This document shows positions 39,605-48,214 of a stretch of 57,198 nucleotides of DNA, in pieces (the first letter of the stretch is position 1; the number at the start of each line of letters is the position of its first letter). The position numbers and the translations under genes are program-made. The DNA comes from an uncultured archaeon (GTDB taxonomy: Archaea; Aenigmatarchaeota; Aenigmatarchaeia; PWEA01; JAGHBM01). The stretch lies in NCBI GenBank assembly GCA_964640225.1, contig CAZXFI010000002.1, positions 1 through 57,198 of the forward strand, read 5' to 3'. Under the pieces are notes generated by a model, which saw only the letters and a program-made list of their open reading frames with translations, ran no database searches and was not told the origin of the DNA.

Positions 39605-40123
39605 ATGATAAAGGTTTTAAGGCTGGGACACCGGCTCGGCAGGGACGCCCGCATATCCACGCACTGCGGCCTGGTGGCTCGCGCTTTCGGGGCCTCCGGG
39701 GTCGTGTACTCGGGCAACCGGGACGCGAAGATGATTGATTCCGTGCAAGCGGTAGCGAGGGAGTGGGGCGGGCCCTTCTCCGCGGAGCACAGGAAGGACT
39801 GGAAAAAATTTTTGAATGGTTTCAGGGGAAACAAAGTTCACTTAACCATGTACGGCCTACCTTTGAAGAAGAAGATAGCAGAGATAAGGAAAACAAAAAA
39901 CCTTTTGGTCGTGGTAGGCGGGGAAAAGGTTCCCGGAGAAATCTACGAGCTTGCCGATTACAACGTGGCCGTCACTAACCAGCCACACTCGGAGGTCGGG
40001 GCCCTGGCCGTCTTCCTGCATGAGTATTTCCGGGGCAGGGAGACTGGAAAAAAATTCAGGGGAGCCATGGTGAAAGTGGTCCCGCAGGAAAGGGGAAAGA
40101 AAATCAGGACTTCTCGCCCTTAA
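39605..40123 (+). CDS. trm56: tRNA (cytidine(56)-2'-O)-methyltransferase (SPOUT)
   Basis: LRLGHR..RDARISTH, VHLTMYG, VVVGGEKVP, NQPHSEV. Confidence 0.95.
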   Translation: MIKVLRLGHRLGRDARISTHCGLVARAFGASGVVYSGNRDAKMIDSVQAVAREWGGPFSAEHRKDWKKFLNGFRGNKVHLTMYGLPLKKKIAEIRKTKNLLVVVGGEKVPGEIYELADYNVAVTNQPHSEVGALAVFLHEYFRGRETGKKFRGAMVKVVPQERGKKIRTSRP

Positions 40124-41780
40124 TCTTGTAAAGCGTGTAGCTTTTGCCCCTCTCGGTTCTTCTAGCGTAAACCTCCATGTCAAACTTGTCGTGGAAGAAC
40201 TTGCACGGGCCTGACTTGTAGGGCTCCGCGTTGCACCAGTATTCCTCATAGAACAGAACACAATCGTTCTGCAGAATTTTCTCCCTCACGTTGGTGTTCT
40301 GGGCGTACCAGGCCTGGAGGGAGTTCTTGCCGTTCACCAGTATTAGACTGGGGACATGGGTGAATATCCAGCATTCGTCATCAAGCCCTTCCATCTTTTC
40401 CACAACAAAGTCATGCGGGATTCTCGCGTCCCATGCCTTCTCCCCGACCTCGCTCACGAAGGGGTAGAAAGCCAGGAATGCCGTCGCCAGGAGGAGCGAA
40501 ACCAGGGCCAGCGGAAACGGCTTCTTCAAGAACCGGTTAAAAGTCCTGCATAAAACCAGGCATCCGCACCCGCCTAGAATAGCCAGCGGGAGGTAGAGGT
40601 TCAGGGAGAAACGCACGTCCACCCCGTAGTCAAAGCTACCGGCGTAAAAAAGCAGGTACAGGACAAAGAAGGAGAGGAACCAGACCACGAGGATGGATTT
40701 CTTTCTCCATTCTTTTACAAAGGGGTACAGCCCCAGTATGGAGAGAGCACTGAAAACAACCGGAAATCTCTCATTGTCAAAAAAGAACATGCCGTTAACC
40801 CCAAGGTTGTTTTCTATGTACTCCGTGCCGAGCTTGTTCCCGGAGGCTCCCCATCCCTCCGACCTGACCGAGAGCGTGTGTAGCATGTGGGGCACGAGAA
40901 GGGCGGAGAAAACAATGAAAATCACCAGAAACTCCCTCTTCCTCAGGTTTCCCATGAGGTTTTTGTCAAGGAGCAGGAAAGCCAGAAAAACCACCGGAAT
41001 GAAAAGCAGCCCCTCAGGCCTGACCTGGACTGCGTAAGCCAGGCTTGAGAAGGAAAGCAGGAGCACGGGAGTTTTTCCGGTCTTGAAGTAAGCCAGGAAG
41101 GAGAAGAAAGCCAGGGACATGAACATGATGGACACGGAGCCCGCGGAAGTCGTGGGGGCCCAGAGAATTGCTATGGGGATGAGGGAAAAGAAAAGCGCGG
41201 AGAAAATGCCCGCTTTCCTGCTTTCAAAAAGCAGGTAGGCTATTCCAAAGACGAGCAGTATGGAAAGACTGGTGATTGCGGCAGTGTAATAGTGAGCCAT
41301 GGGTTCCCCTGTCCAGAAAAGGAAGAGCGGGCTCAAAAGGAAAGAGTAGCCGTTGGGCTGCTTGTTGTATATGCCCTCAAAACATTCCTCCTGATTTCCG
41401 TAGTTGCAAAGTATTGCGCGACCTTCCCTTGCTATATTCTGCCCTATGTTCATGTATATGTCCTCGTCGTAATAGAGCCTGTGTGTGTGGGGCGCCGCGA
41501 AAACCCTCAGCCCTGTTCCGGCAAGGAATACAACCAAGAGGATGATCCAGAACTTTTTGTTCATATTCCTGAAAAGGGGCTTTATATGACGGAAGCTCCA
41601 GAAAAGGGACACGAGAACCAGAACAAGAGTCACTCCCAGGAAGACAGGCGTGACCCACATAAGGTTTTGCTGCAGCGCGCTCTTGTCAAAACTCTTTTCC
41701 ATGTAGAGGGTGACTATGCTGAAGAACAGAACCACCAGGACGACCGGAATCACTATCTTCAGTTTGTCTCTGGCGCTCAT
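40104..41780 (-). CDS. GT-C fold (PMT/ArnT-like) multi-pass membrane glycosyltransferase
   Basis: Many TM helices, lumenal YYDEDIY acidic motif after the early TMs, RPEG motif, C-terminal extracellular domain. Confidence 0.8.
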   Translation of the reverse strand: MSARDKLKIVIPVVLVVLFFSIVTLYMEKSFDKSALQQNLMWVTPVFLGVTLVLVLVSLFWSFRHIKPLFRNMNKKFWIILLVVFLAGTGLRVFAAPHTHRLYYDEDIYMNIGQNIAREGRAILCNYGNQEECFEGIYNKQPNGYSFLLSPLFLFWTGEPMAHYYTAAITSLSILLVFGIAYLLFESRKAGIFSALFFSLIPIAILWAPTTSAGSVSIMFMSLAFFSFLAYFKTGKTPVLLLSFSSLAYAVQVRPEGLLFIPVVFLAFLLLDKNLMGNLRKREFLVIFIVFSALLVPHMLHTLSVRSEGWGASGNKLGTEYIENNLGVNGMFFFDNERFPVVFSALSILGLYPFVKEWRKKSILVVWFLSFFVLYLLFYAGSFDYGVDVRFSLNLYLPLAILGGCGCLVLCRTFNRFLKKPFPLALVSLLLATAFLAFYPFVSEVGEKAWDARIPHDFVVEKMEGLDDECWIFTHVPSLILVNGKNSLQAWYAQNTNVREKILQNDCVLFYEEYWCNAEPYKSGPCKFFHDKFDMEVYARRTERGKSYTLYKIKGEKS

Positions 41781-46757: not shown

Positions 46758-47423
46758 TCATCTTCCGAAAAGTTCGCATATGATTGTCTTAAGTATGTTC
46801 CACCCGTCCCTGAAGCTTCTCAGGTTCCCTTTCCCGTATTTTCTTGCCTTTTCAAAGCTGGGAACTTCCAGGACCTTCAGCTCCCCTTTGGCGGCCTTTA
46901 TGGAAATCTCGGTCTCTATGCCGAACCCGTCCCTTTTCAGTTCCAGCTTTCTTACGGCGGATTTCCTGAAGGCCCTGTAGCCGTAGCAGAGGTCTGAGTA
47001 TTTCTTGTGCCAGAACAGGTTTACAATGGACACGAAGAACTTGTTGCCGAGTTTCCGGAAGATTGGCATGTCCTCGGTCCCCCCTCCCTGTATGAAGCGG
47101 GAGCCCATGCAAACGTCGTAGCCGGCCTCTATGCCCGCCTTGAGAAGCAGGATTTCCCTGGGTATCATGGAGCAGTCCGCGTCCATGTTTATGACAACAT
47201 CCCCTTTGGCGGCTTTCATACCGGCTCTCAGTGCCGAGCCCTTGCCTTTCCTGTCGTAAAGTATCCTGCAACCAAACTTTCTGGCTATTTTCACGGTCCC
47301 GTCCCCCGAATAACCGTCCACAACCACTATCTCGCTCACGCATTTCATTTCTTTCAGTTCCTTGAGGACTATGGGCAGGTTTTTCTCCTCGTTCAGGGTG
47401 GGAATCACGACCGAAACTTTCAT
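46758..47423 (-). CDS. GT2 glycosyltransferase (Dpm1-like)
   Basis: IPTLNEE, VDGYSGDGT, GKGSA, MDADCS, GSRF. Confidence 0.9.
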   Translation of the reverse strand: MKVSVVIPTLNEEKNLPIVLKELKEMKCVSEIVVVDGYSGDGTVKIARKFGCRILYDRKGKGSALRAGMKAAKGDVVINMDADCSMIPREILLLKAGIEAGYDVCMGSRFIQGGGTEDMPIFRKLGNKFFVSIVNLFWHKKYSDLCYGYRAFRKSAVRKLELKRDGFGIETEISIKAAKGELKVLEVPSFEKARKYGKGNLRSFRDGWNILKTIICELFGR

Positions 47424-48214
47424 TTTTTCTCACTCCGTTTCAGGTAGATAAATATTGACAGGAGGGCAATAAATAGCGTCGCCAGAATCCATATAACACC
47501 GAATCCTTCCTTTGCCTCTAATATCCTTACCGTGCCCCTGGCATAAGAGGCGTGGTGTTTTCCGGAATCATATTCCAGGGAGGCCAGAACGGAATAGGTG
47601 CTTCCCACCAGGGCATTCTGTGGCTCCATAACGTACTTTATTTCCCTTTCCTCAAAAGGGCCCAGCGCAACCGTTTTTTCGCTGTCGTCTACTTTTATCT
47701 CGTCGGGAAGGTAAACCATGACTTTCACCTCCTTTGAATCCCCCTCAAGGTTTTTTATTTTCAGCTTCGCTTCCCCGGTTCCGGATTGGGGAACCTCAGC
47801 CGTTCCCATGCTGCCCGAGACGCCTGTCCCGTAATCCGCCACATTTTTAGTAAAATACCCGGCAACAACGGAAAAGGGGTGCCCGTTGGCATCGTGGTAC
47901 GTTGTTCTTATGACCAGGGGATACAGCCCTTCGGCCAGGCTGCCCTTTGAGGAAAAATTAAAGAAGCCGTACATTGATTCTCCCGGAGACAGCCTGTCCG
48001 CTTCCATTTTTCCCGAATATTCAAAATACGCTGAGGGTTCGGGCACGGCCTCAGCTTTGTAGGCCGACTCGTCGCCTTTCTGCTCCACGAAAACCCTGAA
48101 TTCCCCCTCGCCCCCGTAAAGGGTTCCTCCCGACACGGTGGTTGCCATGGTTATGTATTTTGCGGCCGCGGCCGGAATCAAGAGAAGAAAAACCAAAACC
48201 AAGACAGCCTTCAT
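47420..48214 (-). CDS. Secreted, C-terminally membrane-anchored protein with two predicted Ig-like domains
   Basis: Signal peptide ending AAAA-K, beta-rich body, C-terminal TM helix plus basic tail. ATGA-coupled to the GT2 gene. Confidence 0.7.
   Translation of the reverse strand: MKAVLVLVFLLLIPAAAAKYITMATTVSGGTLYGGEGEFRVFVEQKGDESAYKAEAVPEPSAYFEYSGKMEADRLSPGESMYGFFNFSSKGSLAEGLYPLVIRTTYHDANGHPFSVVAGYFTKNVADYGTGVSGSMGTAEVPQSGTGEAKLKIKNLEGDSKEVKVMVYLPDEIKVDDSEKTVALGPFEEREIKYVMEPQNALVGSTYSVLASLEYDSGKHHASYARGTVRILEAKEGFGVIWILATLFIALLSIFIYLKRSEKK

Follow-up and report, generated by a model that had tools for sequence, protein, structure and literature searches.

Several lipid-linked glycosylation systems of three components have been described, including Arn, Gtr, CsbB/GtcA/YfhO, Pgf and the AglD/AglS system of Haloferax. 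In the Arn pathway, a glycosyltransferase of family 2 (GT2) makes a polyprenyl-phosphate sugar, the sugar is edited at the cytoplasmic face of the membrane while lipid-linked, and a membrane glycosyltransferase of the GT-C type transfers it outside. Streptococcus mutans Pgf, which comprises the GT2 PgfS, the epimerase PgfE and the GT-C enzymes PgfM1 and PgfM2, and the actinobacterial or eukaryotic Ppm1/PMT systems of protein O-mannosylation likewise use a GT2 and a GT-C to glycosylate Thr-rich surface proteins. In addition, the archaeal Agl pathways provide a precedent for a dolichyl-phosphate sugar that is made by a GT2 and used outside by a GT-C-type enzyme. Here we describe an operon of seven genes that resembles these systems and is closest in logic to Arn. 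It occupies positions 40104-48214 of the minus strand in a 57,198-nucleotide stretch of DNA, hereafter the window, from an uncultured archaeon of the Aenigmatarchaeota (assembly GCA_964640225.1, contig CAZXFI010000002.1), and encodes a membrane-anchored head protein, two GT2s (GT2a and GT2b), a radical S-adenosylmethionine (SAM) enzyme, two GT-Cs (GT-C1 and GT-C2) and a carbamoyltransferase. Close homologues of several of the products carry the NCBI label Candidatus Aenigmarchaeota, in keeping with a DPANN host that is probably of this phylum. We consider it rather likely that this operon encodes a system for lipid-linked glycosylation outside the cytoplasm, in which two cytoplasmic enzymes tailor the sugar; Ser/Thr-rich acceptors are favoured.

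As in the described systems, GT2 synthases and GT-Cs are encoded together, with two of each in the operon, and other genomes also keep this pairing. Among solved relatives, ArnC ranks second for both GT2s. However, Arn edits its sugar with the deformylase ArnD, whereas the operon has a radical SAM enzyme and a carbamoyltransferase instead, as well as an extra subunit with two immunoglobulin (Ig)-like domains, and the Arn acceptor, lipid A, is impossible in an archaeon. Three-component systems in general lack the obligate pairing of a carbamoyltransferase with a GT-C that is seen here. The dedicated small flippase by which such systems are recognised (GtrA/GtcA/ArnEF type) was not found in the operon or its flanks (37208-52051), the remaining genome not having been searched, and there is no counterpart of the ArnA/B sugar-nucleotide steps. 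The first-pass annotation of the window had called the operon self-contained, a description that does not fully hold because neither a flippase nor a gene for the synthesis of nucleoside diphosphate (NDP)-sugars is encoded.

The likeness to Pgf consists of a weak NCBIfam match of PgfS to both GT2s, matches of both GT-Cs to PMT_2/PMT and an enrichment of poly-Ser/Thr genes near cassettes. Nevertheless, Pgf and Ppm1/PMT systems have neither a radical SAM enzyme nor a carbamoyltransferase, and the GT-Cs of the operon match no solved GT-C. With regard to the Agl pathways, GT2a has AglJ as its best NCBIfam match but is not an equivalog of it (147 bits against a cut-off of 325 bits). We know of no radical SAM or carbamoyl tailoring of a lipid-linked sugar in Agl pathways, and the words “carbamoyl” and “radical SAM” are absent from a review of archaeal N-glycosylation published in 2024.

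The two tailoring enzymes have their closest described counterparts elsewhere. TobZ, NodU, NovN, GdmN and WapO share with the carbamoyltransferase of the operon a two-domain architecture and all catalytic residues. WapO (PA5005) carbamoylates heptose II of the Pseudomonas lipopolysaccharide core and NodU carbamoylates Nod factors, both being sugars of envelope or signalling glycans (PMC8005017). WapO and NodU systems involve no GT-C or radical SAM enzyme, whereas the carbamoyltransferase described here is translationally coupled to a GT-C; a further difference from class III carbamoyltransferases is that no carbamoyl-phosphate synthesis was detected in the host. The radical SAM enzyme resembles BlsE of the blasticidin S pathway, a small radical SAM protein that carries an Fe-S domain at its C-terminus and acts on the sugar ring of cytosylglucuronic acid, although the two are only 17% identical and differ in their Cys pattern (CX2CX3C). 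Like DesII, SpeY and BtrN, BlsE is one of the radical SAM enzymes that modify sugars. The full-text literature that we searched contained no description of the cassette, of a pairing of this radical SAM family with a lipid-linked sugar, or of a pairing of a carbamoyltransferase with a GT-C.

Operon layout and spread of the cassette

The features of the operon, in the direction of transcription, are as follows.

48236..48243, minus strand, TATA-like box TTTATATT, read in the sequence, with its centre ~26 nucleotides (nt) 5' of the head ATG
47420..48214, minus strand, gene of the head protein (264 amino acids)
46758..47423, minus strand, gene of GT2a (221 amino acids)
46049..46756, minus strand, gene of GT2b (235 amino acids)
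45046..46056, minus strand, gene of the radical SAM enzyme (336 amino acids)
43508..45112, minus strand, gene of GT-C1, a PMT_2-type membrane glycosyltransferase
41777..43498, minus strand, gene of the carbamoyltransferase, class III (TobZ/NodU/NovN-type)
40104..41780, minus strand, gene of GT-C2 (558 amino acids)

All seven open reading frames (ORFs) proposed in the first-pass annotation were recovered at these positions, and every domain named there was detected. Their junctions have the form expected of an operon with translational coupling. Two of them (head/GT2a and carbamoyltransferase/GT-C2) are ATGA overlaps of 4 nt, GT2a and GT2b are separated by 1 nt, and the genes of GT2b and the radical SAM enzyme overlap by 8 nt. 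The junction between the radical SAM gene and GT-C1 is also an ATGA overlap if GT-C1 starts at Met22 (45049), which is probably its true start. Homologues of the carbamoyltransferase align only from residue 11-12 onward, and its true start is therefore probably Met12 (43465), from which its residues are numbered below.

The radical SAM enzyme, the carbamoyltransferase and GT-C2 served as queries against 201 genomes of the phylum. We accepted as orthologues carbamoyltransferases at E<=1e-190 and at least 51% identity, GT-C2 at E<=1e-69 and radical SAM enzymes at E<=1e-70; the orthologue groups were clearly set apart from paralogues. The carbamoyltransferase and GT-C2 were found in an identical set of 12 genomes, and their genes are adjacent in all 12. 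A radical SAM orthologue is present in 11 of these 12 pair carriers, on the same contig and within 10 kb wherever the assembly allows (Fisher’s exact test, radical SAM gene against the pair, p = 2.3e-15). Two genomes (G042 and G196) have the radical SAM gene alone, and one (G140) has the pair without it. Plain tblastn undercounts divergent membrane proteins, and the head protein and GT-C2 searches were repeated with profile hidden Markov models (HMMs), which confirmed the 12 GT-C2 loci. Co-occurrence of the radical SAM, carbamoyltransferase and GT-C trio had been put forward as a test of the proposed pathway, and the three genes do occur together.

The cassette is an accessory feature of the phylum. 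It has a patchy distribution, in ~6% of the genomes and in seven families, and the idea that it might be a core feature was rejected on the count of only 12-13 of 201 genomes.

Beyond the phylum, we surveyed 84 loci by context look-ups, tblastn or HMM searches. A four-gene core of GT2, radical SAM enzyme, carbamoyltransferase and GT-C2 is present in Aenigmatarchaeota (loci L002 in genome G019, and L030), in the archaeon of L003, and in Nanoarchaeota (L033), Micrarchaeota (L034) and Marsarchaeota (L061). Among bacteria, it occurs in Saganbacteria (L004), Verrucomicrobiota (L006 and L065), Pirellulales (L017), Vicinamibacterales (L041) and Dadabacteria (L048), and thus in Planctomycetota and Acidobacteriota as well. 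The cassette is therefore common to archaea and at least six bacterial phyla, which is at odds with its earlier description as an archaeal glycan modification. Since the same genes recur in register in distant genomes, the gene set is far beyond chance, and the co-occurrence of the trio across the phylum and across domains bears out the proposal that the genes are one functional unit.

The order of the cassette genes varies, and the constant pairs are GT2 with the radical SAM gene and the carbamoyltransferase gene with GT-C2. In the mapped cassette loci the GT2 gene adjoins the radical SAM gene, often with overlapping stop and start codons. The 4-nt overlap between the carbamoyltransferase stop and the GT-C2 start is shared by the window, L004, L034, L065 and L091, and GT-C2 is a dedicated, obligate partner of the carbamoyltransferase. 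We built maximum likelihood trees from one set of loci, one for the carbamoyltransferase and one for the radical SAM enzyme, and both contain a DPANN clade with a nested Saganbacteria copy (support 99/99 for the carbamoyltransferase and 96/95 for the radical SAM enzyme), with the other bacterial phyla outside it. Because the two trees agree, and the identities of GT2a give the same picture, the genes appear to have travelled together. GT2a is the best-conserved gene of the cassette, with 77% identity in G019 (L002) and 62% in Saganbacteria L004, against 31-38% between GT2a and the GT2 of the other bacterial versions. From these sequence comparisons we infer joint movement of the whole module, and one probable transfer between a DPANN archaeon and a Saganbacteria-like bacterium.

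Two variants of the cassette within the phylum illustrate its modularity. The first, from the genome with the pair but no radical SAM orthologue, is the following.

6924-17333 of G140:C1 (L091), variant cassette: head protein, GT-C2, carbamoyltransferase, GT-C1, AsnB-type glutamine amidotransferase (625 amino acids), an unassigned protein of 540 amino acids and GT2

The second lies in a genome of the same genus as the host of the window (G019:C3; L002/L094, at ~8.5-21 kb of L002), where the synteny RNase Z - TYW1 - head protein is kept. In this genome the cassette is expanded by a B12-binding radical SAM enzyme, an oppositely oriented GT2, a Phosphodiest protein (alkaline-phosphatase fold) and three GT-C1 paralogues, and the additions precede the carbamoyltransferase and GT-C2. 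In addition, two genomes of one family (f10; G062:C1, ~117-158 kb, and G096:C2, ~55-105 kb) contain large islands with several GT-C2-like genes. Here the immediate neighbour of paralogous carbamoyltransferases (35-38% identity) is a GT-C, and the islands also include a distant homologue of the radical SAM enzyme. The pairing of carbamoyltransferase and GT-C thus extends to paralogous subfamilies.

At the upstream boundary of the operon, the stop codon of the TYW1 gene (48248-48246) leaves 31 nt before the head ATG at 48214. Within these 31 nt lies the TATA-like box, whose spacing to that ATG matches the geometry of archaeal leaderless promoters, and it is therefore probably the operon’s promoter, a putative one of the leaderless type. 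At the other end, the convergent aTrm56 gene (39605-40123, plus strand) ends the unit and shares 40104-40123 with the end of the operon. The flanks (37208-40123 and 48246-50273) carry tRNA-related housekeeping genes, namely those for threonyl-tRNA synthetase with an archaeal editing domain, aTrm56, TYW1 and RNase Z. Further out, an ORF of 582 amino acids (50303-52051, plus strand) combines an AMMECR1 domain at its N-terminus with a long C-terminal extension, which gives a faint GH88-like match, an architecture that is unusual for AMMECR1.

Glycosyltransferases and tailoring enzymes

GT2a and GT2b match Pfam Glycos_transf_2 (96 and 99 bits), and both have a DAD motif (NMDAD and EMDAD). The best solved relative of both is the dolichol-phosphate mannose synthase (DPMS) of P. 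furiosus, 5mlz (2e-24 for GT2a; 2.6e-36, 128 bits, for GT2b), followed by ArnC and GtrB. Neither reaches the NCBIfam equivalog cut-off of AglJ, DPhHxTase, ArnC or PpgS, GT2b scoring for example 68.7 bits against the ArnC cut-off of 529, and with 221 and 235 amino acids both are without the C-terminal transmembrane (TM) helices of DPMS and GtrB. By sequence, both are predicted to be polyprenyl-phosphate sugar synthases by class, nearer to DPMS, ArnC and GtrB than to GT2s that are processive or have soluble acceptors, and are not equivalogs of any named enzyme. GT2a is of a soluble, AglJ/DPM1-like hexose synthase type. This agrees with their earlier annotation as a GT2 and a Dpm1-like GT2, and extends the synthase type to both. 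GT2b is a variable member of the cassette, with a close orthologue in L003 only (60% identity).

The GT-C identity of the two membrane enzymes was also upheld. GT-C1 matches Pfam PMT_2 (59.7 bits) and PMT (32 bits) and has ~8-11 hydrophobic segments, and GT-C2 matches PMT_2 (31.3 bits against a cut-off of 26.1) and has ~11-12 TM segments, both by a crude hydropathy count. GT-C2 has a C-terminal outside domain that contains Cys, and close homologues of it are labelled “glycosyltransferase family 39 protein” by NCBI. GT-C1 also has a weak match to Agl23, and its copy number in other cassettes ranges from 0 to 3. GT-C enzymes such as PMT, ArnT and PglB have as their catalytic base an acidic residue of the first extracytoplasmic loop, which follows TM1. 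Nine relatives of GT-C1 all keep the Asp of QDDGIY, and D105 of YYDED is invariant in GT-C2, where E106 is at least 90% conserved; both motifs come after the first core TM helix, the side of the loop being assigned by sequence position only, and we take these Asp residues to sit at the position of the catalytic base. Searches of PDB sequences with GT-C1 and GT-C2 returned no match even at E<=1, and neither can be assigned to a solved GT-C family by sequence.

The carbamoyltransferase belongs to class III. Its scores for Pfam Carbam_trans_N (117.6 bits) and Carbam_trans_C (180.6 bits) are far above the cut-offs, and in a PDB sequence search it aligned over its full length with NovN (1.5e-61), TobZ (1.9e-56) and GdmN. 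It consists of an N-terminal Kae1-like and a C-terminal YrdC-like domain. In GdmN, the class III catalytic features are a metal site of H133, H137, D156 and D333 and the general base H27 (PMC9633730). The corresponding residues here, H9 as the general base and H142/H143, H146, D165 and D331 as the metal site, do not vary among 12 orthologues, archaeal and bacterial, and neither do the YrdC-like motifs. The HDA, HHxAH, DGxG and DxG motifs align with NovN, and the equivalence to GdmN was established by motif and not by structural superposition. Every class III catalytic residue is thus kept, in agreement with the original TobZ/NodU-type assignment; the NodU NCBIfam score is 110 bits against a cut-off of 1000.

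The radical SAM enzyme contains both a Radical_SAM domain (Pfam, 56 bits) and a SPASM domain (39.5 bits), the latter above its cut-off. The three Cys of the CX3CX2C motif (C34, C38 and C41) are invariant in 32 sequences. The full SPASM signature comprises seven Cys in the pattern CX9-15GX4C ... CX2CX5CX3C ... C and binds two auxiliary clusters. The auxiliary domain of the present enzyme has five invariant Cys (C260, C278, C316, C319 and C323) and a variable C267, its motif is CX2CX3C instead of CX2CX5CX3C, and the protein terminates 13 residues later. The enzyme is therefore SPASM-like by Pfam without having the canonical seven-Cys signature. An AlphaFold model (pLDDT 94) has the fold of a partial TIM barrel, and its best Foldseek match is BlsE (7vob; E = 1.5e-12, TM-score 0.65), followed by SkfB, SuiB, anSME, EpeE, MoaA and DesII. 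The 50 best matches do not include BtrN, and the Twitch dehydrogenase SpeY ranks only 41st (TM-score 0.31), so that the BtrN-type label given in the first-pass annotation was dropped. Taken together, the match to BlsE and the AsnB-type amidotransferase of the G140 cassette hint that the sugar may carry a carboxyl group, as in a uronic sugar.

Since SkfB, SuiB, anSME and EpeE are among its sequence and fold matches, and most of its NCBIfam matches are to peptide maturases, all far below their cut-offs, the radical SAM enzyme might itself be a protein or peptide maturase, of the anSME type or of the type that acts on ribosomally made peptides with post-translational modifications (RiPPs), which lies beside glycosylation genes by chance. 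We regard this as very improbable. The operon has neither a small precursor ORF nor a match to a RiPP recognition element, and the top fold match is the sugar-modifying BlsE. The genomic context argues in the same direction. The family has 2339 homologues at E<=1e-3 across DPANN, the candidate phyla radiation (CPR) and many bacterial phyla, with at least 578 confirmed loci (one genome per species). The neighbour met most often is a GT2 of the polyprenyl-phosphate type, with stop and start codons that overlap; in 34 of 85 loci, a member of the GT2a cluster is found no more than 7 kb from the radical SAM gene. Other recurrent neighbours are B12-type radical SAM enzymes (15 loci), GT9-like proteins (9), TPR-bearing GT-Cs (9), NAD-dependent epimerases, GT4 and hexapeptide acyltransferases. 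All are glycan genes, even where the carbamoyltransferase is absent.

A related suggestion is that the operon makes a soluble carbamoylated small molecule, similar to an aminoglycoside or a nucleoside, rather than a surface glycan. TobZ, NovN, GdmN and BlsE, the nearest solved relatives of the tailoring enzymes, are indeed all natural-product enzymes. However, two multi-span GT-Cs and two DPMS-type GT2s would have no role in such a pathway, genes for an aminotransferase, a cyclase or export are missing, and the host genome is reduced (1.17 Mb, 91% complete). We therefore find a soluble product barely credible. A lipid-linked sugar that is tailored in the cytoplasm and transferred outside is the most economical reading of the GT2 class, the GT-C Asp residues, the class III residues and the co-occurrence of the genes.

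The head protein

The head protein has a signal peptide (MKAVLVLVFLLLIPAAAAK) and two beta-sandwich domains, and its C-terminal TM helix is followed by a tail that is short and basic. It has no Pfam match. An AlphaFold model (pLDDT 90) places two beta-sandwich domains of the Ig-like, CARDB type between the signal peptide and the TM helix, and the model has Foldseek matches to RbmA and to transglutaminase Ig-like barrels; head relatives in Micrarchaeota have weak CARDB matches. The protein had been annotated as an anchored Ig-like surface protein, which the model supports.

The first-pass annotation also proposed that this gene, at the head of the operon, encodes the substrate of the system. 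If so, the operon would be dedicated to maturing a single surface protein, with the head protein as the target of glycosylation or of the radical SAM enzyme. In favour of this, the gene stands first in the operon and accompanies the cassette in DPANN archaea and Saganbacteria, its product is secreted and anchored in the membrane, and an N-x-S site (FNFS, FNLS or FNVS) is partly conserved in several close relatives. On the other hand, a profile search of 1.8 billion representatives recovered a family of 491 members at E<=1e-30, nearly all of 260-285 amino acids and matching end to end, in which conservation falls on structural positions (Gly, Tyr, Pro and a CARDB-type Asn in a V-x-N-x-G context). 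There is no invariant Ser, Thr or sequon in the family and no Ser/Thr-rich tract in the head protein. Head orthologues are found within the cassettes of Aenigmatarchaeota, Micrarchaeota, Marsarchaeota and Saganbacteria, and in profile HMM searches the family was confined to DPANN and Saganbacteria cassettes and absent from those of Verrucomicrobiota, Planctomycetota, Acidobacteriota and Dadabacteria.

Fusion proteins provide further evidence on the role of this family. At least two independent contigs encode a PMT_2-type GT-C with a head module joined in frame at its N-terminus.

867-3725 of L089, head/GT-C fusion P0235 (952 amino acids), GT-C part PMT_2/PTPS_related
192-2792 of L090, head/GT-C fusion P0261 (866 amino acids), GT-C part PMT_2/PTPS_related

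In L090 the fusion gene is followed by genes for a methyltransferase, a polysaccharide deacetylase and a GT2. Both fusions are stop-free under translation table 11, and we rejected the possibility that they are read-through artefacts of an alternative code. Their topology is coherent, with the Ig-like domains outside, followed by a TM helix, a basic cytoplasmic linker and the GT-C core. The GT-C parts are only distant relatives of GT-C1 and GT-C2, and the fusions therefore support a general partnership between the head family and GT-Cs and not a specific partner.

Fusion to a GT-C suits a subunit better than a substrate. In view of the large family of uniform size (~270 residues), its lack of a conserved Ser, Thr or sequon, its restricted distribution and the fusions, we conclude that the head protein probably assists the GT-C enzymes as an accessory subunit at the outer face of the membrane, and that a role as the substrate is improbable. 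In kind, it may be likened to the single-pass beta-sandwich subunits of the eukaryotic oligosaccharyltransferase.

Acceptors, proposed pathway and significance

We favour protein O-glycosylation as the function of the system, with long Ser/Thr-rich tracts of surface proteins as acceptors, because of the matches of its GT-Cs, the Ser/Thr-rich ORFs of the host genome and the enrichment of such ORFs beside cassettes. The Pfam families matched by both GT-Cs (PMT_2/PMT) are protein O-mannosyltransferase families. In the host genome, Ser and Thr make up at least 55% of a 40-residue window in at least 12 ORFs, several of which are large, with signal-like N-termini and a TTTTEETTSTQD-type repeat. The following large ORFs, in which the Thr/Ser-rich acidic repeats are long and several of which have signal-like N-termini, are probable surface proteins, judged by their sequence, and candidate acceptors of O-glycosylation.

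C23:2389-6135, large ORF with Thr/Ser-rich acidic TTTTEETTSTQDTTTSETTST-type repeats
C14:18368-19577, large ORF with Thr/Ser-rich acidic TTTTEETTSTQDTTTSETTST-type repeats
C16:10525-16842, large ORF with Thr/Ser-rich acidic TTTTEETTSTQDTTTSETTST-type repeats
C1:213229-220072, large ORF with Thr/Ser-rich acidic TTTTEETTSTQDTTTSETTST-type repeats
C1:83184-84974, large ORF with Thr/Ser-rich acidic TTTTEETTSTQDTTTSETTST-type repeats
C5:56084-59116, large ORF with Thr/Ser-rich acidic TTTTEETTSTQDTTTSETTST-type repeats

Among the surveyed loci, ORFs in which a stretch of 40 residues has at least 26 Ser/Thr were found at 5 of 15 cassette loci but at only 1 of 69 other radical SAM loci (Fisher p = 5e-4), an association that is suggestive, given the small numbers and a threshold picked after viewing the data. 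That one other locus (L050) is a truncated cassette.

A serious rival is that the same machinery serves a different acceptor and decorates N-glycans or lipids. AglB is encoded on contig C4 of the host, so that N-glycans exist to be decorated, and in Hfx. volcanii a protein-bound N-glycan is augmented from a dolichol-phosphate sugar (PMC11407970). One GT-C2 homologue is named “ArnT-like” by JGI, the weak match of GT-C1 to Agl23 points the same way, and the window has no Ser/Thr-rich gene. Against these points stand the enrichment of poly-Ser/Thr genes beside cassettes and the match of both GT-Cs to protein O-mannosyltransferase families, and a lipid-specific target is made less likely by the presence of the cassette in bacteria with very different envelopes. 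On balance we judge these other acceptors to be unlikely, although they deserve more weight than any of the alternatives discussed above.

The contig that encodes AglB has a second glycosylation locus (C4, ~59557-67198). Next to the AglB (STT3) match at 59557-60321 are a B12-type radical SAM enzyme (63430-64884, minus strand), a GT2 (64917-65615, plus strand) and a PMT_2-like GT-C (65624-67198, plus strand), which form another GT2 / radical SAM / GT-C triad adjoining an oligosaccharyltransferase.

For the protein O-glycosylation system that we favour, we infer a pathway in which the chemical steps, the order of the radical SAM and carbamoyl steps, the carrier lipid and the acceptor are all conjectural. 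GT2a and GT2b would act in parallel at the cytoplasmic face, each loading a hexose from an NDP-sugar onto dolichyl or polyprenyl phosphate, a step suggested by their homology to DPMS, ArnC and GtrB. The SPASM-type radical SAM enzyme would then abstract a hydrogen from the GT2a sugar, which could lead to oxidation, epimerisation, dehydration or decarboxylation, and the carbamoyltransferase would O-carbamoylate the sugar via carbamoyl-AMP. Both tailoring steps are expected to be cytoplasmic because the former needs SAM and a reductant and the latter needs ATP. The tailored lipid-linked sugar, which would be carbamoylated and radical-modified, would be flipped across the membrane and transferred there by GT-C2, while GT-C1 would transfer a second, probably plain, sugar made by GT2b. 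This division into a conserved, tailored line (GT2a, radical SAM enzyme, carbamoyltransferase and GT-C2) and a variable, plain line (GT2b and GT-C1) is suggested by the conservation of the cassette genes. On the outer face, the head protein would lie next to the GT-Cs, where it would help with acceptor binding or give the complex stability.

Several observations weigh against this pathway. None of the seven products or the flanking genes at 37208-52051, to which the search was confined, matches a flippase family. No carbamate kinase, carbamoyl-phosphate synthetase (CPSase), ornithine transcarbamylase (OTC) or aspartate transcarbamylase (ATCase) was detected in the host genome at its 91% completeness, and a recognisable source of carbamoyl phosphate (CPSase and/or arcC-like) is present in only 4 of 12 carrier genomes, being absent from the host (G000), G019, G186, G142, G118, G152, G035 and G094. 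The whole family to which the window belongs has no such source, including the 5-contig genome G019. Furthermore, ~65 of the 84 radical SAM loci have no carbamoyltransferase, and no SPASM radical SAM gene was found in the G140 cassette, which has an amidotransferase; the two tailoring steps thus appear to be separable. Peptide-modifying SPASM folds match the radical SAM enzyme about as well as sugar-modifying ones, no Ser/Thr-rich protein is encoded in the window, and the Ser/Thr association elsewhere has the limits given above.

Class III carbamoyltransferases make carbamoyl-AMP from carbamoyl phosphate and ATP, and the one of the operon is apparently intact. With regard to the carbamoyl donor, we speculate that carbamoyl phosphate comes from the symbiont’s own host or that the enzyme adenylates another donor such as free carbamate. 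HypF has been reported to make carbamate from carbamoyl phosphate before adenylation (PMC9633730), which makes free carbamate a conceivable donor. How reduced symbionts without a carbamoyl-phosphate source supply such enzymes is a metabolic puzzle.

In conclusion, our analysis leads to a broader proposal, which we put forward tentatively, as possible rather than probable. A mobile four-gene module of DPANN and at least six bacterial phyla, joined in DPANN and Saganbacteria by an Ig-like membrane subunit, may make a new radical-modified, O-carbamoylated lipid-linked sugar for Ser/Thr-rich surface proteins, and hosts without carbamoyl-phosphate synthesis may use another donor (free carbamate or host-derived carbamoyl phosphate). 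The pathway of archaeal O-glycosylation is still undefined (PMC8241124; PMC6098224). If the proposal is true, the cassette would be the first genetically defined route of protein O-glycosylation in Archaea. It offers named candidate genes for this process and a mass signature of +43.006 Da on a hexose-derived residue. In addition, it links a large radical SAM family of unstudied function (>2,300 homologues) to lipid-linked sugar chemistry and a carbamoyltransferase subfamily to a dedicated GT-C partner. Overall, the patchy distribution of the cassette and the Saganbacteria copy inside the DPANN clade suggest that surface decoration appears to have been traded between small-celled archaea and bacteria.

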